Source: a virus
Virus record (IMG/VR): IMGVR_UViG_3300047160_020099
Location: 1 to 64,000 of that record
Length of the DNA stretch: 64,000 bases
Strand: one strand, 5' to 3'
Positions 91-61,560 of the stretch are shown piece by piece. A program made the position numbers and the translations under genes. The notes beneath the pieces were generated by a model. That model had not been told where the DNA came from. It saw only the letters and a list, made by a program, of their open reading frames with translations, and searched no databases. Each line of letters opens with the position of its first letter. Within the stretch, counting starts at the first letter, position 1.

Positions 91-104
91 AGTATTCCAA
101 TACT
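91..104. promoter_or_regulatory. Palindrome AGTATT-SS-AATACT, copy 1
   Basis: AGTATTCCAATACT between the putative promoter and the RBS. Confidence 0.8.
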
Positions 105-119
105 TTTGAGGAGTCAGCC

Positions 120-668
120 ATGACCAAGTCTTACGGGAAGTCGGGCCGCCACTATCGTTATGAGCCTACGGACAAGAAGGGCCAGGGTGCCCTGGAGTTC
201 TGGGCCGAGAACGGGATGATCTGCATGCTCGACGAGCGCATTCCACCTCGCGACCCCGATCACTTCGTCGTCCTGACCGTACGCGAGTTCCTCGTCAACC
301 TCCGGGCCATCAACGCTTCTATTCAGCGCTGTGCCAATGCGGTGGCCCGTGTCGCTCTAAGCCGTGGTGTGAATCCAGGTGGGGCGGCTACTGAAGAGCG
401 CGAAGCCTTGCAGAAGTTGGTAGAGGATGGCATTGCCGCAGCCAAGGAAGCACAGCGAATGGGCGACCCACTGAATCCCCGTCATGCCGCTGATATGATA
501 AAAGAGCGACGGAAGAGCATGCTTCATGCCGGCGTTTCTACACAGACAGCCGGTATGGGCGCTGGTGCCGTCAGCCAGGATATTGCCCCGGAAGCCAGGG
601 AACTTCCGCCACTGATCCTGCCCGGACAGGATACGCCAAAGTCTGACAAAAAGCTCATCATCCCTTGA
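120..668 (+). CDS. Hypothetical protein
   Basis: 182-aa ORF with GAGGAG RBS; no recognised motif. Confidence 0.75.
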   Translation: MTKSYGKSGRHYRYEPTDKKGQGALEFWAENGMICMLDERIPPRDPDHFVVLTVREFLVNLRAINASIQRCANAVARVALSRGVNPGGAATEEREALQKLVEDGIAAAKEAQRMGDPLNPRHAADMIKERRKSMLHAGVSTQTAGMGAGAVSQDIAPEARELPPLILPGQDTPKSDKKLIIP

Positions 669-686
669 AGTACCAAGGAGACTCCA

Positions 687-1034
687 GTGGCACTCACACC
701 TCGCGAGGCTTTCAAGATTGGCTTCGTTCTGCGGTGTGCAGACGAGGGACTGTCTGCCACTGAAACCAGCGAGCGGGTCGAGAAAGCTGCTGCTCTCCTT
801 GAGAAACAGGCCGGCCTGTGGGACACCACCAAGGGTATTGGCAACCTGGGATGGAATATTGGTGTTATCGCGCCCCTTGCAGTCGGCCTCGGCGGTGCTT
901 ACATGCTTCACAAGGCTACCGAGGACACCGTCGATGTGGAAGACTTGCGTAAGCGTGAGTTGATCGCGGAGATGAAGCACTGGGCCAGGCGTGCTCGCGA
1001 ACAAAAGAAGATGAAGCAGCTCTGGTCCTCGTAA
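687..1034 (+). CDS. Small putative virion protein with one hydrophobic segment
   Basis: AAGGAG RBS, GTG start; EKAA and EKQAG motifs precede the hydrophobic IGVIAPLAVGLGGAYML stretch. Confidence 0.7.
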   Translation: MALTPREAFKIGFVLRCADEGLSATETSERVEKAAALLEKQAGLWDTTKGIGNLGWNIGVIAPLAVGLGGAYMLHKATEDTVDVEDLRKRELIAEMKHWARRAREQKKMKQLWSS

Positions 1035-1046
1035 CAGGAGGCCTCG

Positions 1047-3588: not shown

Positions 3589-3590
3589 TC

Positions 3591-6500
3591 ATGCCCGACG
3601 TCATTACGCCAAGTCTGATGGAGTCTGCTCCCGTAGAGACTCCCAAGCTGGCCGACCCCAGCCAGATGCGCGAGTTCGGCGACGCTGATGCTACGCGCAA
3701 GGCCATCTACGACAATCTTCTTGTTTCTGCTGGCAAGATCCCCACGGTCAAGAACAAGTTCTACTCCCTCTCCGTCGAGGAGCCACATTATGACGGCCCC
3801 GACCATTACTCTATCGCCGAGCAGAAGAAAGCAATTCTTGAAGGGCGTACGCTCTCACGGCGACTTCGTGGCACCTGGGTTCTGAAGGACAACGACGGCA
3901 AGGAGGTCGAGCGGAAGCTCATGACGTTGGCACAGGTGCCGCACATGACCAACCGCGGCACCTTCATCCTCAACGGCAACGAGTACACACTCTCCCACCA
4001 GATGCGGCTCCGTTCCGGTGTGTTCACACGCATCAAGGAGAACGGTGAGATCGAGTCGCACCTGAACATCTTGCCTGGCAAGGGTCTCTCTCATCACTAC
4101 TTCCTGGAACCAGCGACCGGTATCTTCAAGGTCCAGGTCCGGCAGTCGGCCATGCCGCTCCTACCCTTGTTGCGGACGCTGGGTGTTACTCCCGAAGAGA
4201 TGAAGGGAGCGTGGGGGCCTGACCTGTATGCGGCTAACCAGCTCAAGGACGATCCACGGGTTGTGGACAAGCTGTACGACAAATTCGTCAGCAAGAAGGA
4301 AACCGGGCTGAGCCACCAGGAAAAGGAGCAGGCGGTCAAGAACGCCATCACGGCGATGGAGCTGGACCCGGAGGTCACGTCACGTACTCTTGGCAAGCCG
4401 TACGCACGGCTGGATCGCGACGCAGCACTGGCCACGACGAGGAAGTTGCTCACAGTGAGTCGTGGTGAGATGGAGCCTGATGACCGTGACCACCTGGCCT
4501 TCCAGCACTTCCTTGGGCCAGAGGATCTTTTGGCTGAGCGGATCGGGCGTGATCGTGGTGTCTTGAATCAGTTGCTATGGAGGGCGACAAGTCGGAAGGG
4601 ATTGGCCGGCGTGCAGCCGAACGTCTTCACGAAGCACGTTAACGCTGCAATCATGGATAGTGGACTTGGTCAATCTCTTGAGGAGATAAACGGAGCCGAC
4701 GTGTTTGATCAGCAGACGCGGGTATCGCGGTTGGGGTATGGCGGAATCCCCTGTCATTCTGCCGATACTGAAGTGTTTACAGCAGAGGGTTGGAAGGCGT
4801 GGCCAGCTGTCACGATGGCTGATCGACTCGCCTGCGTAATTGATAGACAGCTAGCTTTCCGCTGTCCGCGACAATTGTTTGCAGAGACTTATAACGGGGA
4901 GATGCTGCAAGCAGTCAATGAGCAGATAGATTACCTAGTGACACCGCAGCACCGTATGTACGTCCTGCCGACTGATGAGCCGGAACCATCGTGGCAGTTC
5001 AAAACTGCGGAAGAGATACACGGTAAATGTGTGTGGCAGCTGTTGGGTAAGGCGGGTCGTAGTATCTCGCAGTTGGCTGGCATTGTCGTTCAACCTGAAC
5101 ACTACCAGCGGATAGCATATGCTGGTCGGGTCTATTGCGCCGAGATCGAAGGCGGGCTCTTGTTGACCAGACGGAATGGCAAACTTCTTTGGTCCGGCAA
5201 TTCCATTGATGCGGTCCCTGATGAGGCCCGCTCAGTACAGCCTTCACATCTTGGATACGTAGACCTACTTCGCACACCGGAATGTTCAGGGCCACTGACC
5301 GAGGTCATGACTAGCAAAGGCTGGAAGTTTTGGCCAACGGTAACAGCCGATGACGAACTGGCCTGCTTGATTGACGACCGTCTTGAGTTCCATAAGCCGT
5401 TGAAGCTCATCGCTGCCGATTACGTCGGCCCGATGTGTGGCGCTCGCACAGATACTCTGGAGTATCTGAATACTCCCAACCATCGGCAGTATGTTCGTCC
5501 GATGCACAAGGGCGCTACGTGGCGAATCGAAACATCCGAGCAAATCGGCACCAAGTCTAGGATCCATCGCACAGGCGGGCATTTGCCGTGGGCCGGCATG
5601 CCCCAGTCCATGTTCGAGCTTCCTGCGATCGAGCGACTCGGCAATCATACGAACACTGTTCCGCCCATTCCGTTTCAGGACTGGGCAGAATTCATGGGTT
5701 GGTATCTCTCGGAGGGGCACTGCACCTATGAGGAGGTGAGGCCTACTTACAACGTAGGTATCTCTCAGAGCCAAGAAGCCAATCCTGAGAACTGCCAGCG
5801 TATCGAAGCGTTACTGGCCCGATTGCCGTTCGCGTGGCACTACAACCGGTCGATGCGATGCTACATCTTGCAGGGCAAGCAACTGGCATCCTATTGCCGC
5901 CAGTTCGGCTACTGCCAGGACAAGTGGATCCCGCGGGAACTGCTTGAAGCCGATGAGCCTACCCGTCGTCTCTTGATGGAGTCGATGCTGCTCGGAGACG
6001 GTCACCGCAGGAACGGAACTTCAAAGCGTGACCGATACGACACTACGAGCGAGAAGCTAGCCCAGGATTTTCAGTGGCTGGCTTTCACACTTGGTATTCC
6101 ATCGCGTATCACACGGAGTGTTGACAAGCGCAAAGAAAGCTATCTGCCGGTCTTCAGTGTCAATCTACATGACCGTACCGAACGGCAGATCCATCAATGC
6201 AATCGCTACACCATCCCGTACAGCGGCAAGGTGTATTGCGCTTCTGTGCCCGGTGGTTTGTTGTACATACGACATGGCGATACTGCCGGACATTGGTCCG
6301 GCAATAGCTTTCGCGTCGGTGTTGACTCCCGCGTCTCCTACGCCGCTCGCAAAGGTTCCGACCGCCGTATCTACACACCGTTCATCGACGCCCACTCTGG
6401 CCAGACCGTCTGGAAGTCGCCGCAGGAAGTAGCCGACTCCGTTATCGGTTTCCAGGATGCAGGCTGGGCTGCCCACGGTCTCGTGCCAGCACAAGTCGCC

Positions 6501-9485
6501 GGCAAGACGCGTATGGTCATGCCGAACAAGATCGACTTCTGGCTCCCTCACATGGAGCAAGCCTTCTCCCCGCTCAATAACCTGGTGCCGCTCAAGTCCA
6601 CGATCAAGGGTCAGCGGGCGGCCATGGCTTCCCGCTTCATCACCCAGGCACTACCACTGAACAAACCCGACGCGCCATTGGTTCGCGGACAGGTGCCTAA
6701 CCGTCCTGGCCAGTCATTCGAGGAGTTCTACGGCAGGTTCATGGGCGCTGTGCAGGCTGCTAACAGCCCAGGACGTGTGGCGTCTGTAACGCCTGACGAA
6801 ATCGTTGTCAAGCACGCGGACGGGACTACAAGGAACTACGAGCTATACAAGACGTTCCCGTACAATCGCAAGACTTACCTTCACAACACCCCACTTGTGC
6901 AAGAAGGCGACCCTGTTCAGCCTGGCCAGTTGCTCGCCAAGAGCAATCAAACCGACGACCAGGGCCACGTCGCCCTCGGCAAGAATCTCCGTGTTGCTTA
7001 CATCCCGTTCCGTGGTGGTAACTACGAAGACGCCTACATCATCTCGGAATCGGCCGCCAAGAAGCTAACCAGTGAGCACATGTATCAACATGTGCTGGAA
7101 TGGGACCCCAGCCACCGTAAGGGTAAGAGGATTTACTCCTCGATCTTCCCCGGCACTTACGACAAGAAGACGCTGGACAAGATGGATGACGATGGTGTCA
7201 TCAAGGAAGGTGAGACCGTTCACTTCAATGACCCGGTCGTTCTGGTCGCTGCCGAACGTGAGTTGTCGCAGAAGCAGATTCACTCGGCACACAAAGGCTC
7301 CTTCGTCGATCGCTCGTTGACATGGGAGCACCACGCCGACGGTATCGTTACCGACGTGGCCAAGACGCCGAAGGGCATTACGGTAGCCATTCGCGGGCTG
7401 GCCCCTTCGAACATTGGAGATAAAATTAGTGGGAGATTCGGCGATAAAGGGGTAGTGTCGCAAATCGTCCCCGACGACCAGATGCCTCACGATGAAGAGG
7501 GCCGCCCGTACGAAGTGCTGGCCAACCCACTCGGCATCATTTCACGCTGCAACGTCGGCCAGGCCATCGAAGCACGTCTGGGTAGGATTGCCGAGCGCAC
7601 CGGCAAGCCGTTCGTCATCGAGGACTTCCCGGCTGACGGTCGCGATATTACCCAGTGGGCAATGGACCAGGTGGCCAAGGCCGGCTTGCCCGACACCGAA
7701 ACGGTCATTGACCCAGCCACCGGCAAGCACATACCTGGCGTGCTGACAGGCAACCGCTACTTCATGAAGCTGATGCATACGGCCGAAGCGAAAGGTCAAG
7801 GCCGTGGTCTTGGTGCCTACACCGCGGAAGACGTGCCGGCTCGCGGTGGCGCCGAGGGCTCCAAGAAATTTGCCATGATGGACCTGCACGCAGTTCTCTC
7901 TCATGGTGCCACGGAAGTTCTCCGCGACGCCAAGCTGGTCCGCGGCCAGAAGAACCAGGAATACTGGTCGAACTACATGAGTGGTTTCCGTCCGCCCACT
8001 CCCAGGCCGCCTATTGTCTACGACAAGTTCATCAACATGCTGAAGGGTGCCGGCATCAACGTCCTTCGCGACGGCCAAAAGATGCGCATCATGGCTCTGA
8101 CGGATAAGGCCATCGACAAACTTAGCGAGGATCGAGAGCTTCAGAACGCCGAAACCGTTGACTGGAAGACTGGCTTGCAACCCAAGAGAGGCGGCCTCTT
8201 CGACGTACACCTGACGGGCGGTCACAGCGGCAACCGCTGGTGCCACATCAAGCTAGTCGAGCCCATGCCGAATCCAGTCATGGAGGAGCCTATTCGCCGG
8301 CTGCTCGGTCTGACGGCCAAGAAGTTCGAGGCTGTCGTGGCCGGACAGGAACAGCTCGACGGGCGTACCGGCCCTGCTGCCATCTCCGCGGCCCTCAACC
8401 GGGTGAATCTGGACCAGGCCATCGAGCAAGCACTGGCCGACGCGAAGTCTGGTCGAAAGACTCTTCGCGATAACGCCATCCGCAAGATTGGCTTCCTGGC
8501 CGGGGCCAAGAAAAATGGCATACACCCTCGCGAGTGGATGCTCTCCAAGGTGCCCGTCCTGCCGCCGCTTTTCCGTCCCGTTTCTGTCATGCAAGGCACG
8601 GGCGGGCAGCTAATCAGTGACGCCAACTACCTCTACAAGGAAGTGTTCGACGCCAACCAGCTACTCGGCCAACTCAAGCAGGCGACGGACGACGTCGGTG
8701 AAGAGCGACTGAACCTGTACAAAGCCTTCAAGGGCGTTACTGGCCTTGGCGAGCCTACACAGCCCAAGAACCAGGAGCGACGGGTCAAAGGCATGTTGGC
8801 CCAGATATTCGGAACGAGCCCCAAGTGGTCGTTCGTGCAGCAGAAGCTGCTCGGCACAGCCGTGGACCTCGTCGGCCGAGCTACTGTCATCCCGAATCCC
8901 GACTTGAACATGGACCAGGTCGGCTTGCCAGAGACTCGTGCCTGGGAGGTCTACACGCCCTTCGTGGTGCGTCGAATGGTGCGTCGTGGCGTGCCCCGTG
9001 TGCAGGCACTGGAGTATGCCAGGGACCATCATGCGCTCGCCCGGCAAGCTTTGATGGAGGAGCTCAACGAGCGGCCGGTGCTGGTCAACCGTGCTCCGGT
9101 GCTGCACCGCTACGGCATGATGGCCTTCTGGCCGCGACTGACCAAGGGAGATGTGCTGCAAGTGCCGCCACTGATTGTGGGCGGGTTTGGCATGGACTTC
9201 GACGGTGACGCTGCCAACTACCACGTGCCTGCCTCCGACGAGGCAAGAGATGAAGCCCTGGCCAAGATGTTGCCGTCGCACAATCTTTTCAGTGTGAGCC
9301 GGTTCCGAGTTCACTATTTGCCCCGGCAAGAATATCTTTCTGGGCTTTGGGCAGCCACGAATGGTGTAAACTCAAAGCAACGCCCTCGGGTGTTTGCCAC
9401 TACCCGGGAAGCAATCGAAGCTTTCAATCGCGGAGAGCTTGAGCCAGGGCAGCGGGTTGAGATCATGGAACACAGCAAGCCCTAA
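3591..9485 (+). CDS. rpoB: Phage multisubunit RNA polymerase: beta fused to the N-terminal (catalytic) part of beta', with two inteins
   Basis: Beta motifs FILNGNEYTLSHQ, GNYEDAYIISE, GDKISGRFGDKG, LANPLGIISRCNVGQ, YFMKLMH; after about 8080, beta' motifs VPVLPPLFRP, LLGTAVDLVGRA, VLVNRAPVLHR and DFDGD (9195-9209). Confidence 0.95.
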   Translation: MPDVITPSLMESAPVETPKLADPSQMREFGDADATRKAIYDNLLVSAGKIPTVKNKFYSLSVEEPHYDGPDHYSIAEQKKAILEGRTLSRRLRGTWVLKDNDGKEVERKLMTLAQVPHMTNRGTFILNGNEYTLSHQMRLRSGVFTRIKENGEIESHLNILPGKGLSHHYFLEPATGIFKVQVRQSAMPLLPLLRTLGVTPEEMKGAWGPDLYAANQLKDDPRVVDKLYDKFVSKKETGLSHQEKEQAVKNAITAMELDPEVTSRTLGKPYARLDRDAALATTRKLLTVSRGEMEPDDRDHLAFQHFLGPEDLLAERIGRDRGVLNQLLWRATSRKGLAGVQPNVFTKHVNAAIMDSGLGQSLEEINGADVFDQQTRVSRLGYGGIPCHSADTEVFTAEGWKAWPAVTMADRLACVIDRQLAFRCPRQLFAETYNGEMLQAVNEQIDYLVTPQHRMYVLPTDEPEPSWQFKTAEEIHGKCVWQLLGKAGRSISQLAGIVVQPEHYQRIAYAGRVYCAEIEGGLLLTRRNGKLLWSGNSIDAVPDEARSVQPSHLGYVDLLRTPECSGPLTEVMTSKGWKFWPTVTADDELACLIDDRLEFHKPLKLIAADYVGPMCGARTDTLEYLNTPNHRQYVRPMHKGATWRIETSEQIGTKSRIHRTGGHLPWAGMPQSMFELPAIERLGNHTNTVPPIPFQDWAEFMGWYLSEGHCTYEEVRPTYNVGISQSQEANPENCQRIEALLARLPFAWHYNRSMRCYILQGKQLASYCRQFGYCQDKWIPRELLEADEPTRRLLMESMLLGDGHRRNGTSKRDRYDTTSEKLAQDFQWLAFTLGIPSRITRSVDKRKESYLPVFSVNLHDRTERQIHQCNRYTIPYSGKVYCASVPGGLLYIRHGDTAGHWSGNSFRVGVDSRVSYAARKGSDRRIYTPFIDAHSGQTVWKSPQEVADSVIGFQDAGWAAHGLVPAQVAGKTRMVMPNKIDFWLPHMEQAFSPLNNLVPLKSTIKGQRAAMASRFITQALPLNKPDAPLVRGQVPNRPGQSFEEFYGRFMGAVQAANSPGRVASVTPDEIVVKHADGTTRNYELYKTFPYNRKTYLHNTPLVQEGDPVQPGQLLAKSNQTDDQGHVALGKNLRVAYIPFRGGNYEDAYIISESAAKKLTSEHMYQHVLEWDPSHRKGKRIYSSIFPGTYDKKTLDKMDDDGVIKEGETVHFNDPVVLVAAERELSQKQIHSAHKGSFVDRSLTWEHHADGIVTDVAKTPKGITVAIRGLAPSNIGDKISGRFGDKGVVSQIVPDDQMPHDEEGRPYEVLANPLGIISRCNVGQAIEARLGRIAERTGKPFVIEDFPADGRDITQWAMDQVAKAGLPDTETVIDPATGKHIPGVLTGNRYFMKLMHTAEAKGQGRGLGAYTAEDVPARGGAEGSKKFAMMDLHAVLSHGATEVLRDAKLVRGQKNQEYWSNYMSGFRPPTPRPPIVYDKFINMLKGAGINVLRDGQKMRIMALTDKAIDKLSEDRELQNAETVDWKTGLQPKRGGLFDVHLTGGHSGNRWCHIKLVEPMPNPVMEEPIRRLLGLTAKKFEAVVAGQEQLDGRTGPAAISAALNRVNLDQAIEQALADAKSGRKTLRDNAIRKIGFLAGAKKNGIHPREWMLSKVPVLPPLFRPVSVMQGTGGQLISDANYLYKEVFDANQLLGQLKQATDDVGEERLNLYKAFKGVTGLGEPTQPKNQERRVKGMLAQIFGTSPKWSFVQQKLLGTAVDLVGRATVIPNPDLNMDQVGLPETRAWEVYTPFVVRRMVRRGVPRVQALEYARDHHALARQALMEELNERPVLVNRAPVLHRYGMMAFWPRLTKGDVLQVPPLIVGGFGMDFDGDAANYHVPASDEARDEALAKMLPSHNLFSVSRFRVHYLPRQEYLSGLWAATNGVNSKQRPRVFATTREAIEAFNRGELEPGQRVEIMEHSKP
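4752..5201 (+). mobile_element. Mini-intein 1 (150 aa, no endonuclease) in RNAP beta
   Basis: Begins CHSADTEVFTAEGW after GYGGIP; block B VTPQHRM; block F VYCAEI; ends WSGN followed by Ser. Confidence 0.9.
5283..6305 (+). mobile_element. Intein 2 (341 aa) with LAGLIDADG homing endonuclease in RNAP beta
   Basis: Begins CSGPLTEVMTSKGW after RTPE; TPNHR; FMGWYLSEG, MESMLLGDG and TTSEKLAQDFQWLAFTLGI blocks; ends WSGN followed by Ser. Confidence 0.92.
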
Positions 9486-9500
9486 CGATAGGAAGTCATC

Positions 9501-10250
9501 ATGTTCAACGGACTGAATCCAGAGCTTATCACGATGGGCCTGCATGCTGTGAGGCGCCGCGAGAAAAGCGGTTTTGTTCCATCGGATGCTGTTGCAGGCG
9601 GACAGCCAGGCGGTGGCGGCGGCGATCCATCAGGTGGTGCTGGTGGCCCTCCGCCTGACCCGTCTGGTGGTGGAGGTGGCGGTCCACCGCCTGACCCGTC
9701 TGGTGGTGGAGGCGGTGGCGGTGGGCCCGGTCCTGGCGGCGTTGACCTTATGTCTGCGTTGCCGCAGATGATCCAACAGCAGATCCAGCAGGCTCTTCAA
9801 CAGAGTGGCATGGTGGGGCAGCCTGGTGTTGCTGGGACTGGTGGCGCTGGCAAGCCACCCAAGCCTGACATCAACACCGTGGCCATGGACCTCTTCCAGC
9901 TCAAGAAGATGTTCCTGCACTTCCTGAAGGTGCAAGGCATCGACCTGCCACCTGACATTCTCGATGGGCCGAACCGCGATCCGTCTACCGGTATGCCGAC
10001 GCCGCCTGACCCGACAGGTGGCATTGGTGGTGCTGGTGGTGGCGGTGGTGGCAATGGTGCTGGTCCTTCCAGTGCCATCAGCCCGGTCCAGCCGATGCAG
10101 GCTGCGTTCCCGACACCGCCAGGTGGTCAGGCCAAGGCGGGTGCGGTCATGCAGCCGCGGGTTGGTGAGGAGATCAACGGCCACAAGATCCTCTCGAAGG
10201 CTGCGGCCGTGGCTCGGATGTGCCGTCAACGAGCAGGGAGTAGCTCGTGA
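9501..10250 (+). CDS. Gly/Pro-rich low-complexity protein
   Basis: 249 aa; PPPDPSGGGGGG repeats around a short helical core. Confidence 0.75.
   Translation: MFNGLNPELITMGLHAVRRREKSGFVPSDAVAGGQPGGGGGDPSGGAGGPPPDPSGGGGGGPPPDPSGGGGGGGGPGPGGVDLMSALPQMIQQQIQQALQQSGMVGQPGVAGTGGAGKPPKPDINTVAMDLFQLKKMFLHFLKVQGIDLPPDILDGPNRDPSTGMPTPPDPTGGIGGAGGGGGGNGAGPSSAISPVQPMQAAFPTPPGGQAKAGAVMQPRVGEEINGHKILSKAAAVARMCRQRAGSSS
9651..9712 (+). repeat. Direct repeat with 36-nt period (coding PPDPSGGGG)
   Basis: ccgcctgacccgtctggtggtggagg at 9651 and 9687. Confidence 0.8.
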
Positions 10251-10492
10251 TCGTCGAGAGTCACAATGGCTTGCACGATCCGTTGAAGGTGCCGGCTACC
10301 CGGGTCCTTGTAACTGGCGACGACGGTACGCCGATCTGCCTAGTAGTGGAATACTCGAAATTACCCCACCCCTGGGTACGAGTCTTTCGTGTCGGGGACA
10401 AGGATTTCAACGAGCAGCTTCATCATCACGGCATCAACAAGACGGTGACGGTCACAAAGATGGCAGGGCAGGGACTGCACTTGCCGGGGTGA
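10247..10492 (+). CDS. Hypothetical protein
   Basis: 81 aa; GTGA overlap with the upstream stop; GGGAG RBS. Confidence 0.7.
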   Translation: MIVESHNGLHDPLKVPATRVLVTGDDGTPICLVVEYSKLPHPWVRVFRVGDKDFNEQLHHHGINKTVTVTKMAGQGLHLPG

Positions 10493-10496
10493 GACA

Positions 10497-12404
10497 ATGC
10501 TGCACGTGACGGCCGGACAACTTGCGGTGAATTCAGTCCTGCCGGAAGACTTGAGGGACTACAACCGGACTCTGGACAAGAAGGGTCTTGAGAAGCTTCT
10601 TCAAGCCGTTGCAGACAAGTACCCAGAAAAATACCGCCAGGTCGTTCATGACCTCTCTCGGCTCGGCTACCACACCGCCTATCTGACCGGTGGCAATTCC
10701 TTCGGCCTTTCCCACCTGCGACAGTCCATGGCCGGTCATAAGGCCCAGGTAGAACTGGAAGATGCTGTCTCCAAGATCTACACGGACCCTACGCTGAAGG
10801 GTCGTGAGAAGGACATGCGGGTTGTGGAGTTGTTGCTGGGCAAATCCAAGGACCTGGAAGACCAGACCTACAAGGAAAGTCTGGCCGAGAACAACCCCTT
10901 CGCTCACCAGGTCCTGTCTGGTGCCCGCGGCAACCCAACCAACCTCCGTTCGTTGCGGGCCGGCGACCTTCTTTACGTTGACCACCACGACAACCCGATA
11001 CCCGTGCCTGTGCTGCACAGCTATTCCCACGGGCTGAGCCCGGTCGAGTATTACGCCAGCACCTTCGGCGCTCGCAAGGGTGTGATCGACGTCAAGTTTG
11101 CCACGCAGGACGCTGGGGCTTTCTCCAAGAATCTCAACCAGATCGCACACCGACTCATCGTCGTCGCACCTGACAACGAAAAAGACCCCACCACAGTCCG
11201 CGGCCTGCCTGTCGAGACTGAAGACCCTGACAACGAAGGTGCTTTGCTGGCCAAGCCAGCCGGCGGCTACCCGCGCAACACGATGCTCACGCCCAAGATC
11301 CTTGGCGATCTCAAGGAAAAGGGCGTGATGAAGCTCCTGGTGCGTAGCCCGATGGTCGGCGGACACGAGACTGGCGGACTGCTGGCCAGAGATCTCGGCT
11401 ACCGAGAGCGTGGTGGTCTGCCTCCTGTAGGCGACTATGTGGGTATCGCTGCCGCACAGGCCCTGTCAGAGCCATTGAGTCAGGCACAGCTGTCGTCCAA
11501 GCACTCGGCCGGCGTTGCGGGAGCTGCCAAGGGTGTTTCTGGCTTCAAGCTGGTCAACCAGCTCGTTCAGGTTCCCAAGACTTTTCGCGGTGGTGCCGCA
11601 CATGCCCAGAAGGACGGACGCGTACAGTCGGTTGAGCCTGCTCCCCAGGGCGGTAACTACGTGACTGTGGACGGGACCCGTCACTATGTTGCTCAGGGCT
11701 TCGAGGTCACTGTGAAGCCCGGCCAGACTGTTGAAGCCGGTGACCTCCTGTCCGAAGGCATCCCCAACCCCTACGAGATCACCAAGCACAAAGGGAACGG
11801 CGAGGGCCGGCGTTACTTCACGGACGCCTTCCGCAAAGCCTTTGCGGACGCCGGCATCGGTGCCCATCGGAGGAATATTGAAATACTCGCGCGTGGCCTC
11901 ATTGATCATGTTCGACTCGCCGACGAGTTCGAACAGTACCAGCCCGGTGATGTAGTCTCCTACTCGCGGCTGGAACACCATTACAAGCCGCGGGACGGCT
12001 ATGACGTGGTGGAGCCGAAGCGTGCCCTGGGCATGTATCTGGAAGCACCAGTCTTGCATTACACGATTGGCACTAAGGTCCGCCCAAGCGTGGTCCAGAA
12101 CCTGGCCGACTTCAGCGTGCCGAGCATTGCCGTACACAAGGACCCACCGCCCTTCGAGCCTGAAATGATCCGTGGTATGGATACGATGTCCCATGACCCC
12201 GACTGGATGACCCGTTTCCTGGGTTCCTACCTTCAGAAGAACCTCTTGAAAGGTACCTACCGGGGTGACGTGTCCGACGAAGCTGGCACGAGCTACGTGC
12301 CGCCGCTCGCCCACGCTGTCGAGTTCGGCCACAAAGGCCTCACAAAGGGCTGGAAACTCGAAGACGTCAAGAAAATGCCCTCCTCTTCCATCATGTCTGA
12401 CTGA
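10497..12404 (+). CDS. rpoC: Phage RNA polymerase beta' C-terminal part
   Basis: SGARGN; bridge helix GLSPVEYYASTFGARKGVIDVKFATQDAG; trigger loop VGIAAAQALSEPLSQAQLSSKHSAG; HRRNIEILAR. Confidence 0.93.
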   Translation: MLHVTAGQLAVNSVLPEDLRDYNRTLDKKGLEKLLQAVADKYPEKYRQVVHDLSRLGYHTAYLTGGNSFGLSHLRQSMAGHKAQVELEDAVSKIYTDPTLKGREKDMRVVELLLGKSKDLEDQTYKESLAENNPFAHQVLSGARGNPTNLRSLRAGDLLYVDHHDNPIPVPVLHSYSHGLSPVEYYASTFGARKGVIDVKFATQDAGAFSKNLNQIAHRLIVVAPDNEKDPTTVRGLPVETEDPDNEGALLAKPAGGYPRNTMLTPKILGDLKEKGVMKLLVRSPMVGGHETGGLLARDLGYRERGGLPPVGDYVGIAAAQALSEPLSQAQLSSKHSAGVAGAAKGVSGFKLVNQLVQVPKTFRGGAAHAQKDGRVQSVEPAPQGGNYVTVDGTRHYVAQGFEVTVKPGQTVEAGDLLSEGIPNPYEITKHKGNGEGRRYFTDAFRKAFADAGIGAHRRNIEILARGLIDHVRLADEFEQYQPGDVVSYSRLEHHYKPRDGYDVVEPKRALGMYLEAPVLHYTIGTKVRPSVVQNLADFSVPSIAVHKDPPPFEPEMIRGMDTMSHDPDWMTRFLGSYLQKNLLKGTYRGDVSDEAGTSYVPPLAHAVEFGHKGLTKGWKLEDVKKMPSSSIMSD

Positions 12405-14893: not shown

Positions 14894-14907
14894 AGTATTG
14901 CAATACT
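14894..14907. promoter_or_regulatory. Palindrome copy 2
   Basis: AGTATTGCAATACT, intergenic. Confidence 0.8.
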
Positions 14908-15475: not shown

Positions 15476-16030
15476 ATGGCTATGACTGAAGCTAGCCGAA
15501 AGGCTCGTCGCGATCAATGGCGTCGCGATGGTCGTTGCACGATGTGTGGCCGTGACCCGATTCCAGGTCGCAGGCTGTGTCCACGCTGTACTAAGTACCA
15601 CCGCAAGCTCAGAGCTAAACGAGCCGCTGCTGGCATTTGTAAACGCTGTGGCGGGATAGTTGCCGAGGGTCATATTCATTGCCAGGATTGTCTCAGGAAG
15701 GTACGGGAAGACAATCAAGCAGTCAGAAGGGAAGTCATTGCGGCATACGGTGGCACGTGTGCCTGTTGTGGCGAGCCGGAGGAAGATTTTCTCCAAATCG
15801 ATCACATTCATGATGACGGTGCTGAACATCGGCGGCAGATAGGTGGAGGGGGAGCCATCTATCGATGGTTGAAACGTCACGGCTTCCCCAAAGACAGGTT
15901 CCAGCTGCTTTGTGCCAACTGTAACTACGCCAAGGAATTTTACGGCAGCTGTCCACACCAAAGGACTGGCACGGAGATAAGAGAACATGCAAGGCTCAAC
16001 AGATGTGCTGGAAAGAAACCGGCTGCGTGA
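15476..16030 (+). CDS. HNH homing endonuclease with N-terminal Cys repeats
   Basis: YGGTCACCGE...LQIDHIH...FQLLCANCN; two CxxC..CxxC units. Confidence 0.85.
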   Translation: MAMTEASRKARRDQWRRDGRCTMCGRDPIPGRRLCPRCTKYHRKLRAKRAAAGICKRCGGIVAEGHIHCQDCLRKVREDNQAVRREVIAAYGGTCACCGEPEEDFLQIDHIHDDGAEHRRQIGGGGAIYRWLKRHGFPKDRFQLLCANCNYAKEFYGSCPHQRTGTEIREHARLNRCAGKKPAA

Positions 16031-18810: not shown

Positions 18811-19980
18811 ATGTTCCAGGTTTACGAACGGGTCTACAGCCTGTTGAAAGGCAATCCTATTTCGATTGCAGTCAACGGCGATGCATATCTATTGCAGATC
18901 CCGTTTATGCCGGTTGGCTTTCTGACCAAAGTCCTGGTAGAGCAAATCCAGGGTGCTAGTGTTACGTTCACTGTGGACGTATTTAACTCTAGCCTTGGCC
19001 TGACGCCTGGTGAAATCAGTGGTTTGGTGCTGCCGCCTAGCTGGAAGCAGTATCACATCCTGGATCAGCTGAGTGGAACTGCCGGAGGTCAGGTTAAGTC
19101 TTACGTCACAGCCGGTAATCCATATCGCAACCAGGACGGCCCTGATCCTGTTCGGTCAGGTGTTTCAGCCGCCGGCCTTGGTCCTGGCTTCACCAACGCT
19201 CAGCGGTTTATCTACGTACTACTGCAACCAGCAGTAGCCAGCCTTGCAGCACCGCCAGGTGCCAATACCGCTACGATCAGCCCACCGGTCCAGAATAGTC
19301 CAGCTGTTGCAGCTGGTGGTGGGACATGGGCCGGCACCGGGACTTACTATTACGCGATTACCGCAGTTACAGCGGCTGGCGAATCCACGATCTCGAATGA
19401 AAAGTCGGCCATCGTCACTGCCCTCACACAGACAGTTAACCTGTCCTGGACTGCGGTCGCGGGAGCCACAAGTTACAAGGTCTATCGAGCTACCTCGTCC
19501 GGTGCCGAAACTTCTGGCTCTACACTGATCACAACGATCGGTAGTGGTTCGACAGTCACCTATGCCGACACAGGCACTGCTGCCTCGGCTAGCCACGCTC
19601 CGACTTCCAATACTGCCGCAATCCCTGCTCCGACGGTCACTCCTACTGTGGCCGTAACAGGTGGTGGTACCACAGGTGGTCACCTGCCGCCCGGTGCTTA
19701 CTATCTCAAGTACACCTTCACCAACGCGGCTGGCGAAACAACCGTTTCCGCTGAATCTACCCAGTTCACTGTGGCAGCCGGCAATATCCCGCAGGTTACC
19801 TTGCCAGCACTGGAAGCCGGGGCAACGGGTATTTCCATTTACCTCACACCGGCTAATGGAGCTAGCGGCTCCGAAATATATTACACGTCGGGTGTGACGG
19901 TAACCGCCTTCAACATGGTCAACGCTGCTGGCTCGTCAATGTGGGAAGTGTCGGTCAACGCGTACGAAGATACCCGTTGA
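18811..19980 (+). CDS. Virion surface protein with two FN3/Ig-like modules
   Basis: YYYAITAVTAAGEST..VNLSWTAVAGATSYKVYR and GAYYLKYTFTNAAGETT modules. Confidence 0.7.
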   Translation: MFQVYERVYSLLKGNPISIAVNGDAYLLQIPFMPVGFLTKVLVEQIQGASVTFTVDVFNSSLGLTPGEISGLVLPPSWKQYHILDQLSGTAGGQVKSYVTAGNPYRNQDGPDPVRSGVSAAGLGPGFTNAQRFIYVLLQPAVASLAAPPGANTATISPPVQNSPAVAAGGGTWAGTGTYYYAITAVTAAGESTISNEKSAIVTALTQTVNLSWTAVAGATSYKVYRATSSGAETSGSTLITTIGSGSTVTYADTGTAASASHAPTSNTAAIPAPTVTPTVAVTGGGTTGGHLPPGAYYLKYTFTNAAGETTVSAESTQFTVAAGNIPQVTLPALEAGATGISIYLTPANGASGSEIYYTSGVTVTAFNMVNAAGSSMWEVSVNAYEDTR

Positions 19981-20004
19981 GTATTGCACTACTCGGGAAA
20001 CTCC

Positions 20005-23581: not shown

Positions 23582-25036
23582 ATGATGATCAAGGTGATGT
23601 CGGCTCAGGACCAGAGCAAGGTGCTCATGGGAGAGCCGGCCAACCGGTTGATCAAGATGGCTTCAGGCGGCTGGAGTGGCGAAGACTTCAGGGCGCTCGT
23701 GAAGCGCGCCGGACACCTTGTCGCCGACGCTGTGAAAGACGTGAAGTTCGAGAAGGGAGAGGTGCCGGTTCATTCGATCGCACTGGGTTCCGGGGAGTGG
23801 TACGGGCACAACCGCAACGGCGACTTCTTCAGCGAAGACGCCTGCCGCAAACACCACAAGACCTTCGAGAAGTACGCCCGCGCGTATCGCGACCACGAGA
23901 ACAAGGACCCTTCCAAGAGCTACGGCACCGTCAAGCTAGCCCTGTACAACGAGCCGATGCACCGCATCGAGCTGATCATTGGCTACAACGGCACCAAGGA
24001 AGCGGCCGAACGAAATGGCGGGCTGGTCGCTGACGAGGAGCTGAACCTTCTGAACAAGGGTTCGGACTTCGACACGTCAATGGCCTGTAAGGTTGCCTAT
24101 GACGTATGTAGCTGCTGTGGCAACAGAGCTCGCACTCGTGCTGACTACTGCAAAGGCACACACGAAGGCGGTCACTGCAAGGGCGGCGGACTCAAGAACA
24201 ACATGGGTACCGTTCTTGACGACGGTACCCAGGTCTATGCTGAAAATCCGCACCCCTTGTGGTTCGATAACTCCAAGGTCTGGCGACACGCTGATCGCAT
24301 TGCTGTTGCCGGCCTGCTCAAGTCTGCCGCGAGTATTCCAATACTTGGTGGTGCAGCCCTGGCCGAGTCACTTGGTGTGACCATGCCGTGGGAGGTTGCC
24401 ATGGCCGGCTATGAGACTGCTCCTTATGCGGTCCGTTTAGCTGTCAAACTTGCCAGCCACGAGCGGGCTTTGTCTCTGGTCAAGCCGCGAGACACGCTAG
24501 CCCTGGCTCTTGCTTATGCTCCAGCTTCCTGGACCAATCATGGCGGGACCATGCAGCAGGCCATCACGGCACTGGCTCATGAGAAGATTGCCCTGCCGCT
24601 TCGTGGTTTCCTGGAGTTGGTACTGAACGAGCCGGAGCGTGCCGCTATCAACCTTGCACCCACACAGGCTCGCTTGCCTGGTGTGTATACACGCATGCTC
24701 GAAGACGGCTCTGCGGAGAAGCTGGCGTACGACAATCCTTTCGCTGTTTCTCCACGACCAGCGCCACCTCGTGTCCGTGAATGGGCACACAAGCTGGCCG
24801 CTGATTACTCTTTGGACCGCGAACACTTGTTGAGGCGGGCAATGCGAGCAGGCATCTATCGCAGCAACCCTGAGTTGCTGGCGCTGCCACTCGTCAAGGA
24901 AGCTGGTGCGGCTGAAGAATTGGCCCGGCACTATGCCGCCTACAAGTTGGCCTTTCTGCACAGTCTGGCAGGTACAGACCCCTGTTTTGAGTTGACAAGC
25001 ACAATGGTCGTGCGGCAGAATTACGTACAGCAATGA
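23582..25036 (+). CDS. Prohead (capsid maturation) protease
   Basis: NRNGDFF, DHEN, TSMACKVAYDVCSCCGN and WFDNSKVWRHADRIA match the Zn-containing assemblin-type phage protease pattern; lies upstream of scaffold and MCP. Confidence 0.75.
   Translation: MMIKVMSAQDQSKVLMGEPANRLIKMASGGWSGEDFRALVKRAGHLVADAVKDVKFEKGEVPVHSIALGSGEWYGHNRNGDFFSEDACRKHHKTFEKYARAYRDHENKDPSKSYGTVKLALYNEPMHRIELIIGYNGTKEAAERNGGLVADEELNLLNKGSDFDTSMACKVAYDVCSCCGNRARTRADYCKGTHEGGHCKGGGLKNNMGTVLDDGTQVYAENPHPLWFDNSKVWRHADRIAVAGLLKSAASIPILGGAALAESLGVTMPWEVAMAGYETAPYAVRLAVKLASHERALSLVKPRDTLALALAYAPASWTNHGGTMQQAITALAHEKIALPLRGFLELVLNEPERAAINLAPTQARLPGVYTRMLEDGSAEKLAYDNPFAVSPRPAPPRVREWAHKLAADYSLDREHLLRRAMRAGIYRSNPELLALPLVKEAGAAEELARHYAAYKLAFLHSLAGTDPCFELTSTMVVRQNYVQQ
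24332..24345. promoter_or_regulatory. Palindrome copy 3 (intragenic)
   Basis: AGTATTCCAATACT. Confidence 0.7.
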
Positions 25037-26414: not shown

Positions 26415-26428
26415 AGTATTCCAATACT
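26415..26428. promoter_or_regulatory. Palindrome copy 4
   Basis: C-AGTATTCCAATACT-G, intergenic. Confidence 0.8.
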
Positions 26429-26870: not shown

Positions 26871-26934
26871 TCGAAATTGACAGGTCGGAGCCGTTTTGGT
26901 TGAATGTGGCAAGCCCGACTCATCGGAGAAGGTA

Positions 26935-37710: not shown

Positions 37711-38499
37711 ATGAGCATTATCCTCACCGCACTTCTGGTCGTTGTGTTCCTGCTGTTGCTTGATCTCAACAAGCTCATCATGGTGCCTTCGGCCGGTGGC
37801 GTGGAGTTGCTGAAGCGGCAGCTCTATGGCCGCGGCGGCACCATTACAGCCGCCACCAACGCCAGCCCCACGGTCATCACCAGCACTTCCCACGGCCTGT
37901 CTAACGGTGATGCCGTCTACATCGCGGGTGCGACAGGCAACACGAACATCAACGGCGGTCCCTTTGTGGTCAACAACGTGGCCACAAACACTTTCCAGAT
38001 CGCCACGATTTCAGGCACCACCCTTACCCTGGTCAACGGTAACGGCACGTTCGGCGGCACCTGCTACTGGTCGCTCGCCAACATGGAAAACTGTGCCCTG
38101 AAGCTTTACTCCAGCAACACCACCCCGGCTGAGGGTGACACAGCTGGTACGTACACCGAAGTGGCCAACGGCTCCGGCTACACGACCGGCGGCGTTACGC
38201 TCAACAGCGTTACCCAGGCGACCGGTCAGTCCGGCTGGACAGTGCCGGCCACAGTGGGTTCAGGCGGTACTGGTGCCTGGGGCACAGGTCTTGGCACTGG
38301 TTCGACAAACGTGCCGGAAAGCACGTACAACCAGCAAACCTGGTCCTGGACCGGCAACGTGACAGCGTACGGTTACTTCGTGGTCGGAGGCACTTCGACG
38401 ACAATCTGGTGGAGCGAGCGGTTTGCCAACCCGCCAAAAAACTTCGGGTCGGGCGATACACTCCAGCTAACGCCGAGGTTGGGCTTGACGCACGCTTGA
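37711..38499 (+). CDS. Virion structural (fibre-associated) protein
   Basis: Thr/Gly-rich; ITAATNASPTVITSTSHGLSNGD module; LKLYSSNTTP..YTEV..GY..YGYFV pattern; alternative start at 37780. Confidence 0.65.
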   Translation: MSIILTALLVVVFLLLLDLNKLIMVPSAGGVELLKRQLYGRGGTITAATNASPTVITSTSHGLSNGDAVYIAGATGNTNINGGPFVVNNVATNTFQIATISGTTLTLVNGNGTFGGTCYWSLANMENCALKLYSSNTTPAEGDTAGTYTEVANGSGYTTGGVTLNSVTQATGQSGWTVPATVGSGGTGAWGTGLGTGSTNVPESTYNQQTWSWTGNVTAYGYFVVGGTSTTIWWSERFANPPKNFGSGDTLQLTPRLGLTHA

Positions 38500-38557
38500 C
38501 AGAATTCTACGTTATCTGTAAATTAGCTCCTGATGGTAACTTAATCAGGAGCTAATT
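38496..38557 (+). promoter_or_regulatory. Sigma70-type promoter overlapping an RBS-sequestering hairpin
   Basis: TTGACA-N17-TAAATT; 14-bp perfect inverted repeat AATTAGCTCCTGAT/ATCAGGAGCTAATT (38521-38557) covering AGGAG. Confidence 0.7.
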
Positions 38558-46510: not shown

Positions 46511-46524
46511 AATATTGGAATACT
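46511..46524. promoter_or_regulatory. Palindrome variant (1 mismatch) abutting a start codon
   Basis: AATATTGGAATACT, intergenic. Confidence 0.6.
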
Positions 46525-52855: not shown

Positions 52856-53431
52856 ATGCCGGAAGTATTCGAATACTGCTCTGAGGAACGGCGGATGGTC
52901 GAGACAACGACCAAGAAATGTCGTCGTTGCAAAGAGGTGAAGCCGCTGGCGGAGTTCAACAGGCAGCAACGAACCCCTGATGGCTTGAACTACTATTGCC
53001 GGCAGTGCCAGAGCGAATGGAACCGGAAATGGGCAGCCGAGTTGTCTGAAGAGAAGCGGGAGGCTCGCAAGAAATACAATCAAGAATGGCGAGATAGCCA
53101 TCGTGACAGACTGCGAGCCAAACAGCCCCGAAATCAGCGCAAGTCGAATTACGGGCTAGATGACACGATCTATCAACAGATGCTTCGTGATCAGAATGGC
53201 CGATGTGCGATTTGCGGTGAGCTGGAGACAACGGAACTGCGAGGTAAAGTTTGGAGTCTCTCGGTTGATCACGATCACGTAACCGGACAGATACGTGGGC
53301 TGCTGTGCAGGCGATGTAACTCCATGCTTGGACACGTTCAAGATAATCCAAGCTTGCTGGAGAAAGCGATAGCTTATCTCCTTAAACACCAACCGACCGA
53401 CATGGTCGTGCCTCCGAATAAGGGAGATTAA
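52856..53431 (+). CDS. Endonuclease VII-like HNH homing endonuclease
   Basis: YGL..YQQMLRDQNGRCAICG..LSVDHDHVTGQIRGLLCRRCNSMLG; alternative start at 52895. Confidence 0.9.
   Translation: MPEVFEYCSEERRMVETTTKKCRRCKEVKPLAEFNRQQRTPDGLNYYCRQCQSEWNRKWAAELSEEKREARKKYNQEWRDSHRDRLRAKQPRNQRKSNYGLDDTIYQQMLRDQNGRCAICGELETTELRGKVWSLSVDHDHVTGQIRGLLCRRCNSMLGHVQDNPSLLEKAIAYLLKHQPTDMVVPPNKGD
52864..52877. promoter_or_regulatory. Palindrome copy 8
   Basis: AGTATTCGAATACT. Confidence 0.75.
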
Positions 53432-53928: not shown

Positions 53929-53968
53929 AAGCCCGTCAGAAAAGCGTCATGCTTTCCTGACGGGCTTT
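53929..53968 (+). terminator. Terminator after the tail tube
   Basis: AAGCCCGTCAG..AAAGC/GCTTT..CTGACGGGCTT stem. Confidence 0.75.
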
Positions 53969-53982
53969 AGTATTGGAATACT
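53969..53982. promoter_or_regulatory. Palindrome copy 9
   Basis: T-AGTATTGGAATACT-A between the terminator and the RBS. Confidence 0.8.
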
Positions 53983-58119: not shown

Positions 58120-58121
58120 GT

Positions 58122-60287: not shown

Positions 60288-60289
60288 CG

Positions 60290-60763
60290 ATGGACGTATT
60301 TCTTACACATCCTGGCATTGCCATAGCTGTTGACTCGCCAGGCATACCCATGAACCTCTTCGTGGGTAACTGGAAGGGCTACACCGGCTACAAGTCCATC
60401 CTCACCAGCTTTGCCGTACACATGAAGGGTGGCGTTCGCTACATGCACACCCTCCGTGACATGATATATGTCTACACGTTCGGCGAGCGCATGGCACCGA
60501 TCACCATAAGCGGCGTTTCCTTCGCCGCAGTCTGCGAAAATCTGAAAGACCGTGTTGCCACAACCAGCCATGGTCTGGAATACGCCATGTCGTACTACTG
60601 GACTCAGCGAGTGACGGCGACAGGGCTGCCAATAAGACTCGTACTCGGTCTGGCAGCCATATTCCAGGGCTTCCTTGATGAGGGAACTTTCCAACTGGCT
60701 GATCCGAACAGTTACGTTGGGCAGTTCTCATTCAACTTCAATGCTATTCAGATGGGTCGCTGA
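60290..60763 (+). CDS. Baseplate/tube-initiator-like protein
   Basis: YMHTLRDMIYVYTFGERMAPITISG; follows the tape measure. Confidence 0.55.
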   Translation: MDVFLTHPGIAIAVDSPGIPMNLFVGNWKGYTGYKSILTSFAVHMKGGVRYMHTLRDMIYVYTFGERMAPITISGVSFAAVCENLKDRVATTSHGLEYAMSYYWTQRVTATGLPIRLVLGLAAIFQGFLDEGTFQLADPNSYVGQFSFNFNAIQMGR

Positions 60764-60765
60764 TT

Positions 60766-61560
60766 ATGGTTAATCACCTGCGAACCTGTTTGCTGAACGT
60801 CAACGGTAGCTTGTCGCCATCGCCTGCATATCCCGGCGAGGAGTACGTGCCACCTACCTACGTGGCGAAGTTTTTGCCTGGCGAGCTAGCACAGGGCTAC
60901 GAGCTGCTCTTCGGCCTGCAGCCAGATCGAGCCTTGATGAACTATAACCTTCGGGCCTTGCTCGACATGCTTCACGCGTCTGAGCTGGAGTCGCACGTAC
61001 TGGCGTTGGACCCGCGTATCACGTACATGCCGCCCAAGACAGACCTATTCGATCTGGTAGCCAGCGGTGCCGTGATAACGCAACTGGCCGGTACGCAGAC
61101 GCTCACGTTTGCTGGCGGCAACGCTGTCAGTCAGGTCGGCAATAACATCAGCTTCCGCTGGCAAGTGGCTGTACTGGATAGCTCGCACGTCCAGGTGACC
61201 CAGTATTCGAATACTTTCACGTCCGCAGTGACGACCATCCTTCCTTACACAGTCAGCAACGGTCTTTCTTGCCCGATCGCCTTGCCTGGCTCCAGCTTGT
61301 CTGTCCACTTCACAGCAGGAACAGGTAGCTCATGGCAGATTGACGCAATGGCCAGACCGGCACTCGACATACCAGCACTTTCGTACGGGTTGTCAACCAG
61401 TCTGACCGCCGACATGGCTGACGCTATCTTCGGCCCAGTTGGCTCGCCGGAGCCCTACAAGACCTTCCGCAACTTGTGGGAGATGCACGACCAGCTACCC
61501 TACCGGTTGGGTGGCTTGGTGTTAGCTCTCGGTTACCAGATAGACAGCTTGAAGAAATGA
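60766..61560 (+). CDS. Hypothetical baseplate-region protein
   Basis: 264 aa; palindrome copy 10 at 61202-61215. Confidence 0.6.
   Translation: MVNHLRTCLLNVNGSLSPSPAYPGEEYVPPTYVAKFLPGELAQGYELLFGLQPDRALMNYNLRALLDMLHASELESHVLALDPRITYMPPKTDLFDLVASGAVITQLAGTQTLTFAGGNAVSQVGNNISFRWQVAVLDSSHVQVTQYSNTFTSAVTTILPYTVSNGLSCPIALPGSSLSVHFTAGTGSSWQIDAMARPALDIPALSYGLSTSLTADMADAIFGPVGSPEPYKTFRNLWEMHDQLPYRLGGLVLALGYQIDSLKK

Follow-up and report, generated by a model that had tools for sequence, protein, structure and literature searches.

Why does an uncultured jumbo phage from soil, with an RNA polymerase of its own, carry a perfect 14-bp palindrome scattered through its genome, inside genes as well as between them? 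The question is raised by a stretch of 64,000 nucleotides (the window), positions 1-64,000 of the 161,936-bp IMG/VR viral contig IMGVR_UViG_3300047160_020099 (the record), in which the element AGTATT-SS-AATACT, with S standing for G or C, recurs. The record has a CheckV completeness of 78% and a G+C content of 57.8%. Nearly all genes lie on the + strand and 92% of the DNA is coding according to our own gene calling, in which the minus-strand calls at about 15.2-16.0 kb are errors, since genes of the + strand occupy that stretch. We found that the sites are real, strongly selected at the DNA level, dyad-symmetric with co-evolving arms, evenly spaced, and conserved at two gene junctions. It is possible that they form an array of operators or road-blocks at which a putative phage-encoded homodimer docks. 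This is the explanation that we favour, though tentatively and at somewhat less than an even chance; both the binding of a dimer and the blocking or regulation of transcription by it are deduced from sequence.

Abundance and spacing of the palindrome

Ten perfect copies, every one with a G/C centre, are present in the window. They start at 91, 14894, 24332, 26415, 29904, 32756, 33531, 52864, 53969 and 61202, just as an earlier note on this DNA had listed them. Its one-mismatch copies at 5461, 10342, 11874, 19980 and 46511 are also all there, although the note did not mention that the centres of 5461 and 11874 are not G/C, and it missed a further copy at 37498. Its rough estimate of well under 0.01 chance copies per 64 kb agrees with Markov models of order 1-4, which predict 0.0001-0.0007 SS-centred copies, and 100 dinucleotide shuffles of the sequence yielded no perfect copy. 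The enrichment holds over the whole record, where 19 perfect copies stand against 0.001-0.004 expected under Markov models of the same orders (more than 5,000-fold); 16 of them are G/C-centred, and the remaining three centres are GT, TG and GA. With up to one arm mismatch allowed, and the perfect copies included, the record contains 37 sites, which were used for all statistics of spacing, reading frame and placement given below. Half-sites alone are barely enriched, and therefore the unit is the whole palindrome.

Soil metagenome runs contain identical, low-depth fragments of the phage; no RNA run was found to contain it. Identical short contigs from four other such runs cover sites 19980, 24332, 26415 and 33531 fully and 14894 in part, so that the covered sites are not assembly artefacts. 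The four soil DNA runs contained only identical fragments of the same strain, with no population variation. A scan of IMG/VR for the exact 14-mer AGTATTCGAATACT returned only single chance matches, none of them related by tblastx.

The sites are regularly spaced along the record, a property that the earlier note had not described. The coefficient of variation (CV) of the gaps between the 37 sites is 0.48, against 0.96 for random points (P<5e-5), with a smallest gap of 775 bp, a largest of 9,013 bp and roughly one site per 4.5 kb. Neither class of sites is strikingly regular by itself, those at gene junctions having a CV of 0.66 and those within genes a CV of 1.01. When the intragenic copies were re-placed randomly in coding DNA, the combined CV was 0.89 (P<5e-5), and the actual distance from intragenic to junction sites is 5,958 bp, compared with 3,990 bp by chance (P=0.002). 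These two results indicate that the intragenic copies fill gaps, and that both classes share one function which needs coverage of the genome. Two related phages with cognate sites, G001 (62 kb) and G002 (94 kb), show regular spacing as well, with a CV of 0.36 (P=0.009) in the former and 0.20 (P=4e-5) in the latter, or 0.39 (P=0.013) when only perfect copies of G002 are taken.

Placement, symmetry and relatives of the sites

Of the 37 sites, 14 or 15 lie at least partly in non-coding DNA, where chance would place 8.7% (P about 1e-6); 22 are intragenic, some of them 700-1900 nt from the next gene despite closer junctions. Gaps longer than 100 nt make up 73% of the intergenic bases, yet they hold only two of the 13 junction sites (hand-computed binomial, ~2.5e-5), while for 11 of the 13 the gap is no longer than 84 nt. 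Many junction sites abut or overlap the preceding stop codon (TGA running into GTATT). In most cases a ribosome site comes next, and then an ATG at a distance of 11-28 nt, the full range being 1-79 nt. About 40% of the phage's sites stand directly 5' of a ribosome site; the observation that copies occur just before ribosome sites, made in the earlier note, was borne out at 91, 26415, 53969 and others.

Among the perfect junction copies of the window, which like all the sites are given without strand, site 91 (91-104, CC centre) lies 15 nt 5' of the ATG of g120, with which the RNA polymerase (RNAP) operon begins, and 13 nt past a sigma70-like -10 hexamer. Site 14894 (14894-14907, GC centre) occupies a 64-nt gap 5' of gene 14936. 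Site 26415 (26415-26428) begins 3 nt past a stop codon, with the ATG of gene 26448 following 19 nt further, and site 53969 (53969-53982) abuts a terminator-like hairpin (53929-53968) and precedes the ATG of an 860-aa gene by 12 nt. Site 52864 (52864-52877) comes after a 1546-aa gene, 17 nt 5' of the likely true ATG (52895) of the next one, and matches a site of G002 (G002:77707). Directly after it stands an endonuclease VII-like gene (52856-53431; PHROG E=3e-37) that is absent from the same junction of G002, which suggests a mobile gene inserted beside the site.

Two one-mismatch copies occupy unusually tight positions. The copy at 19980-19993 overlaps the TGA of gene 18811 and ends 11 nt short of the g20005 ATG; at most a weak Shine-Dalgarno (SD) sequence lies between them. 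In five relatives' junctions examined at this place, the palindrome and the ATG are 3-8 nt apart and no SD separates them; distant relatives have an overlapping TAATG and no palindrome. The copy at 46511-46524 begins 11 nt past a stop codon and leaves 1 nt between its end and the ATG of g46526, again with no SD, and in G002 just 4 nt lie between the stop codon and the ATG. As the corresponding genes of other phages are coupled or nearly abutting, the palindrome was inserted between translationally coupled genes in both cases. A promoter at either place, with no ribosome site after it, would yield barely translatable RNA, whereas a DNA site would be harmless. The product of g20005 has a low-confidence helical model in a protein-atlas look-up, which is uninformative.

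Within called genes, the copies fall into the three reading frames 8, 8 and 6 times, and are read as VF(E/Q)Y, xYxNT and SIxIL. The roughly equal use of all three frames implies selection on the DNA and not on the protein. This supports the same conclusion of the earlier note, which had pointed to the readings SIPIL, QYWNT, VFQYF and QYSNT in different frames; the negligible RNA hairpin described below agrees with it too. Perfect intragenic copies are found at 24332-24345 (SIPIL; conserved gene 23582-25036), 29904-29917 (QYWNT; HNH-family gene 29153-30028) and 61202-61215 (QYSNT; gene 60847-61560). Those at 32756-32769, 11 nt past the ATG of gene 32745 (VFQY), and at 33531-33544, in the equivalent place of its paralogue 33517 (VFEY), share a common ancestry and were counted as one event because the genes containing them are paralogous. 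One-mismatch copies lie at 5461-5474 (TG centre) in the intein region of the RNAP beta-beta'N gene, at 10342-10355 in an 81-aa gene (10247-10492), at 11874-11887 (GA centre) in the beta'C gene, read as NIEIL, and at 37498-37511 in gene 37071, where the cognate site of G002 stands instead upstream of the orthologue.

The site shows no polarity. No information was detected beyond positions -1 to +15, either around the 37 sites or around 31 junction sites from three phages; the weak preferences for G before and C after the 14 bp are themselves symmetric, and no -35-like signal surrounds the sites. The centres of the G002 copies are A-runs or T-runs about equally often. We also considered the left arm as a -10 element of the sigma70 type (TAnnnT) and rejected this, as it suits some relatives but not this phage or the lineages L216 and L218, and there is no -35 element.

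Cognate elements, not covered by the earlier note, occur only in the closest relatives, whose beta'C subunits are at least about 61% identical to that of this phage; in the more distant relatives examined there was no AGTA-N6-TACT at all. G001 has eight sites of the form AGTA-[A/C]WWWTT-TACT, against 0.03 expected, and G002 has 9-11 of the form AGTA-R-WWWW-Y-TACT. Seventeen of the 19 sites in these two phages lie directly 5' of a ribosome site, nearly all at 0-5 nt, and many include the stop codon of the preceding gene. The arms differ between lineages: AGTATT/AATACT here, AGTTTT-NN-AAAACT in L216 and L218, AGTTTC-CG-GAAACT in L301 (two copies with identical flanks), and AGTAAA-WW-TTTACT in L118 and L119, with the same AGTAAA/TTTACT arms in G001. 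The pairs 4/11, 5/10 and 6/9 thus change in a compensating fashion while AGT...ACT stays fixed, so that dyad symmetry has been preserved between lineages. Searching for the L301 variant as a 16-mer yielded five single matches, among them a 224-kb record without enrichment. The compensation between the arms is new, as is the regular spacing.

Two positions serve as anchors between these genomes. The site upstream of g120 is present here (91) and at G001:46759, G002:40281 and L301:276, and the site upstream of g20005 (19980 here) is retained in at least five sampled lineages, or six counting G002 (L118, L121/G002, L216, L218 and L301). Elsewhere in the stretch of this phage that is syntenic with G002, sites turn over while their density is kept. 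The polymerase, the sigma factor and a class of promoters described below are found family-wide, and the palindrome is restricted to the closest relatives; judged from these sequences, it is a clade-specific addition to a phage family sharing polymerase and sigma factor.

Polymerase, promoters and candidate binding proteins

The phage encodes a multisubunit RNAP of bacterial type on the + strand (3591-12404), consisting of a beta-beta'N fusion with an intein/LAGLIDADG insert (3591-9485) and beta'C (10497-12404), and this is the single polymerase set in the whole record. A 243-aa factor of the sigma-70 family (63295-64000 in the window, + strand, the gene ending at 64026; Sigma70_r3, 29.2 bits, above cut-off) lies inside a structural operon; it has a C-terminal helix-turn-helix (HTH), and its region 2 is undetectable with Pfam. 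The G002 orthologue is 50% identical, and a one-mismatch palindrome is found just upstream of its gene. No match to GenBank phages was obtained by megablast with 20 kb of sequence. The nearest cultured relatives by beta'C, Vibrio phages D181/D148/D69 and Salmonella phage Arash, are only 26-28% identical, and the search for this subunit gave 2,160 matches among 8,000 scored candidates, the homologues being carried by metagenomic contigs of 150-230 kb.

The left end of the window displays an ordered set of signals on the + strand, namely an intrinsic-terminator-like hairpin followed by a run of seven T (1-44), a sigma70-like promoter TTGCCG-N17-TAGGCT (50-78), site 91 and g120. This promoter probably serves the host RNAP; the operon downstream encodes the phage polymerase and has to be transcribed by the host enzyme at first. 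Similar promoters precede the orthologues of g120: TGGCAG-N17-TAAGAT in L301, TTGACG-N18-TACCYT in G001 and G002, and TTGCCG-N17-TATACA in the L127 lineage. From the -10 hexamer to the palindrome there are 13 nt here, 17 in L301, 25 in G002 and 38 in G001. Site 91 would cover roughly +6 to +20 relative to the predicted start, and in this phage and L301 the palindrome is thus placed, with respect to the predicted promoter, in the classical position of an operator.

In the whole record TTG[AC]CG-N17/18-TAnnnT occurs five times, against 1.5 expected, and four of the five matches are 17-76 nt upstream of genes. Besides the promoter at 50-78, matches of the sigma70-like type, TTGACG-N17/18-TAnnnT, lie at 38485-38513 of the window and at 138670 and 147607 of the record, also 17-76 nt upstream of genes, which suggests a small set of host-polymerase promoters. 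A second class, here called class A, is the bipartite motif CTAAAww-N12-13-GYGKCAYTAT, usually found after an intrinsic terminator and before small genes, at 12435, 13614, 14204, 14291, ~15395, 30105, 30635, 32250 and 32662 in the window and at 77098, 142713 and 149200 in the record. It resembles the promoters of sigma28/FliA (TAAA-N15-GCCGATAA), and it is likely, from its sequence, to be the target of the phage sigma factor. The class-A sequence is identical in G001 and G002, in contrast to the interior of the palindrome, which differs in every lineage. Sites 32756 and 33531 are located a few codons into early genes 3' of class-A promoters, the former ~90 nt 3' of the box at 32662. Apart from the palindrome, no recurrent promoter motif was found in the 33-77 kb and 78-142 kb parts of the record; the word TTGGTAGAAT, a possible extended -10 promoter, is present in two intergenic gaps (record 69991-70031 and 76307-76383), once directly after a terminator. 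Terminator-like hairpins lie 0-46 nt 5' of four sites (91, 53969, G002:70120 and G001:9208).

Several proteins were considered as binders of the palindrome. The sole HTH_3 protein of the record (88 aa, 110119-110385, 42 bits) has no palindrome beside its gene. As for the candidates proposed in the earlier note, open reading frames 30704 and 31333 belong to a family of Zn-ribbon/HNH paralogues, open reading frame 13689 has no Pfam match, and none of the three could be linked to the site. The products of g9501 and g10247 were also set aside, being family-wide and not clade-specific, and the former is of low complexity and rich in Gly and Pro. This g9501 protein (9501-10250) is encoded between the polymerase genes in many family members and has one strongly conserved core of 45 residues containing PKPDINTIATDVFQLKKMFLHF.

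The Cys-rich Zn-ribbon paralogues (15477-15986, which had been overlooked by gene calling, 26896-27393, 29153-30028, 30704-31336 and 31333-31875), three of which contain an HNH nuclease motif, are probably free-standing homing endonucleases, as their motifs indicate. Elsewhere, three tandem paralogues of 110-118 aa with a weak sigma-70 region-4-like HTH are encoded at 115546-116572 of the record. A 308-aa protein (28084-29010), the most conserved that we saw, is 85% identical to its G002 orthologue compared with 40-50% for its neighbours; its gene has a high coding score and a terminator 3' of it, and the product may be the major capsid protein or another abundant virion protein. Three direct repeats of ~30 bp (tatgggttgaa.gtc..cttaatgtac) in a 312-nt gene-free gap at record 106724-107035 (L206:2724-3035) are iteron-like and may mark a replication origin.

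Possible functions of the array

In the operator or road-block arrangement that we tentatively propose, each half of the putative homodimer would read one arm (AGT.../...ACT), with a helical turn or so from arm to arm, and its readout of the middle of the palindrome would be indirect. Such dimers would be positioned at rough 4.5-kb intervals, with 9 kb as the upper limit, on a nearly one-directional genome, mainly in the tightest junctions of long operons, after a stop codon and ahead of the ribosome site that follows, and with at least one site just 3' of a promoter. The bound protein could then damp or time transcription genome-wide, including that of the host-polymerase-driven operon which encodes the phage RNAP. 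The earlier note had already suggested a binding site for a dimeric protein, and this part is well supported by the use of three frames, the negligible hairpin, the lack of an asymmetric flank and the compensating arms, from which binding is deduced.

Comparable sites are known. Phage 434 has 14-bp operators, ACAA-N6-TTGT, bound by HTH dimers of the Cro/CI type, with six of them in two clusters at divergent promoters. The palindrome shares with them the length of 14 bp, invariant outer bases (AGT(A)/(T)ACT) and a variable, mostly AT-rich centre of 6-8 bp, but it forms a genome-wide array and the lone HTH_3 protein is not linked to it. Noc-binding sites, matS and SlmA-binding sites are palindromes of 12-16 bp that lie in and between genes and are bound by dimers, and their distribution is a functional property. 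Unlike the palindrome, these sites mark regions of a chromosome and are not known to be evenly spaced or to prefer junctions; moreover, no binder homologous to theirs was found here. The stoperators of Cluster A mycobacteriophages (L5 gp71 and the TipsytheTRex repressor; PMC9283540, PMC6550527) likewise comprise more than 20 genome-wide copies of a short site, most of them located within operons in the short spaces between genes and at least one at a promoter, and their sequence diverges between related phages. Short intergenic sites together with an operator at an early promoter are found here too (11 of 13 gaps of at most 84 nt, and site 91), though 22 of the 37 sites are intragenic. However, stoperators are asymmetric 13-mers bound in an orientation-dependent manner by a monomeric two-domain repressor (PMC9283540), whereas our element is a perfect dyad of 14 bp with no orientation to follow transcription, mostly intragenic and evenly spaced. 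Furthermore, the phages bearing stoperators are temperate and transcribed by the host RNAP, while this one has its own RNAP and sigma factor, and no lysogeny genes were found in its 78%-complete record. In the KorB/KorA network of the IncP plasmid RK2, dispersed OB/OA palindromes of 13-14 bp, some at promoters and some kilobases away, serve global silencing by a dimeric protein (PMC11790492). The palindrome agrees with the ParB-parS, Noc-NBS and KorB-OB systems in being a 13-16-bp palindrome in several dispersed copies. KorB, on the other hand, is a CTP clamp of the ParB family (PMC11790492); its site is unrelated in sequence, and no ParB_N protein was found in the 161,936 bp of this incomplete record. 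By analogy, then, the array works most like stoperators and the KorB/KorA network and is a member of neither. The proposals of the earlier note, a stoperator-like repression array or a parS/matS/Noc-type organisation site, accordingly survive as models of how the sites might work, and fail as assignments to either class.

Several observations speak against a road-block array. No binder was found among the phage proteins examined, and the relatives with cognate sites lack a homologue of the HTH_3 protein. Profile searches gave no candidate for ParB_N (PF02195) in the 161,936 bp, with control genomes positive, and no Phage_integrase or lysogeny module; the record is 78% complete, and the remaining 22% could hold such genes. 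The beta'C profile, run against ~185,000 bacterial genomes, matched only cellular rpoC at 22-28% identity and no prophage-like relatives. For these reasons a global repressor of the lysogeny type is unlikely and the phage looks lytic, and one has to assume that road-blocks are of some use in a lytic cycle, for instance in temporal shut-off or the pacing of transcription. In addition, a role in organising the chromosome explains the even spacing equally well, and three further points, namely the four sites after terminator-like hairpins, the two long regions with no other recurrent promoter motif, and the AT-rich, phage-specific promoter motifs typical of RNAP-encoding jumbo phages (PMC7598289), are those expected if the palindrome were a promoter.

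That alternative, which the earlier note did not raise, would make each palindrome a self-contained promoter of the phage RNAP, of a middle/late or general class, with transcription starting at, or immediately past, the right-arm TA and with very short leaders. We consider it unlikely, though it has much to recommend it. The phage encodes both a polymerase and a sigma factor, and the motif resembles known jumbo-phage promoters in being AT-rich, phage-specific, highly conserved and directly upstream of genes; its AGTA-N6-TA geometry equals that of the AR9 late promoter, for which a review of such phages gives the consensus AACA-N6-TA(+1) (PMC7598289). The position directly 5' of ribosome sites, the retention upstream of orthologous genes and the insertion of a mobile endonuclease gene right after site 52864 would also be accounted for. 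The arrangement of terminator and site is a weak argument, as several other terminators run straight into SD and ATG with no recognisable promoter. Known promoters of phage RNAPs are asymmetric, used in one orientation and not evenly spaced, whereas the palindrome is a perfect dyad with compensating arms, A-run or T-run centres in either orientation and no conserved asymmetric flank. Only ~40% of the sites here are upstream of genes, the even spacing depends on the 22 intragenic copies, and the sites at g20005 and g46526 lie 1-11 nt from the ATG with no ribosome site. Besides, a sigma70-like promoter already stands upstream of site 91, the bacterial-type beta-beta' enzyme and its sigma-70-family factor already have plausible, sigma28-like promoters in class A, and more distant relatives with the same RNAP lack the element.

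The sites could instead organise the chromosome, which we regard as improbable. A protein that bridges or compacts DNA or loads as a clamp (parS/Noc/matS/KorB-like) might be loaded or anchored at them, or they might serve a topoisomerase or a factor of replication or recombination, and the important property would then be their even coverage of the genome. The even spacing in three phages with gaps filled by intragenic copies, the occurrence in genes in all three frames, and the turnover of sites between relatives at a maintained density would suit such a role, and a 14-bp palindrome is in the size class of NBS, matS, parS and OB/OA (PMC11790492). Yet no ParB_N protein was found in the 162 kb, a search that was not exhaustive revealed no SMC, topoisomerase or comparable partner, and the junction sites shun large intergenic gaps and favour the tightest junctions. 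The conservation of two junctions (at least five sampled lineages, six with G002) and the operator position of site 91 both point to gene-specific control. Finally, the palindrome might act in RNA, as a small hairpin or AU-rich patch 5' of ribosome sites that forms a translational operator or a processing site of polycistronic transcripts. All genes being on one strand, every copy is transcribed, the sites of the relatives lie 0-5 nt 5' of the Shine-Dalgarno sequence, and the transcript of the RNAP operon would contain site 91 in its 5' leader. The hairpin, however, has an energy of only -0.2 to -1.6 kcal/mol, and shuffled sequences fold locally at least as well; one-mismatch variants show no G-U bias (position 5/10 of G002 is mostly A-C), the distance to the start codon varies from 1 to 79 nt, most copies here are deep inside genes, and no Rfam family matched the window. 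A signal of this kind is very improbable, and the remaining probability belongs to some other explanation.

A further proposal, rather doubtful at present, is that lytic jumbo phages possess a "genome ruler", that is, a fast-evolving homodimer together with a palindrome kept at even 4-10-kb intervals and forced into coding sequence where needed. Such an array would punctuate or pace transcription by the phage RNAP, or couple transcription to the folding of the chromosome, on a principle that differs from those of promoters, of stoperators in lysogeny and of ParB systems. Soil, freshwater and marine metagenomes abound in large uncultured phages with a bacterial-type RNAP and a sigma factor. The palindrome offers a testable handle on the control of gene expression in these phages, with a site of 14 bp, three to five natural specificity variants, a measurable even spacing, and conserved anchors at the polymerase operon and a head-gene junction. 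The compensating changes in its arms provide a clean natural experiment in the co-evolution of protein and DNA. If the binder is found, it would represent either a global brake on transcription in a lytic phage or a new system of chromosome organisation, and it would also supply orthogonal pairs of protein and operator.

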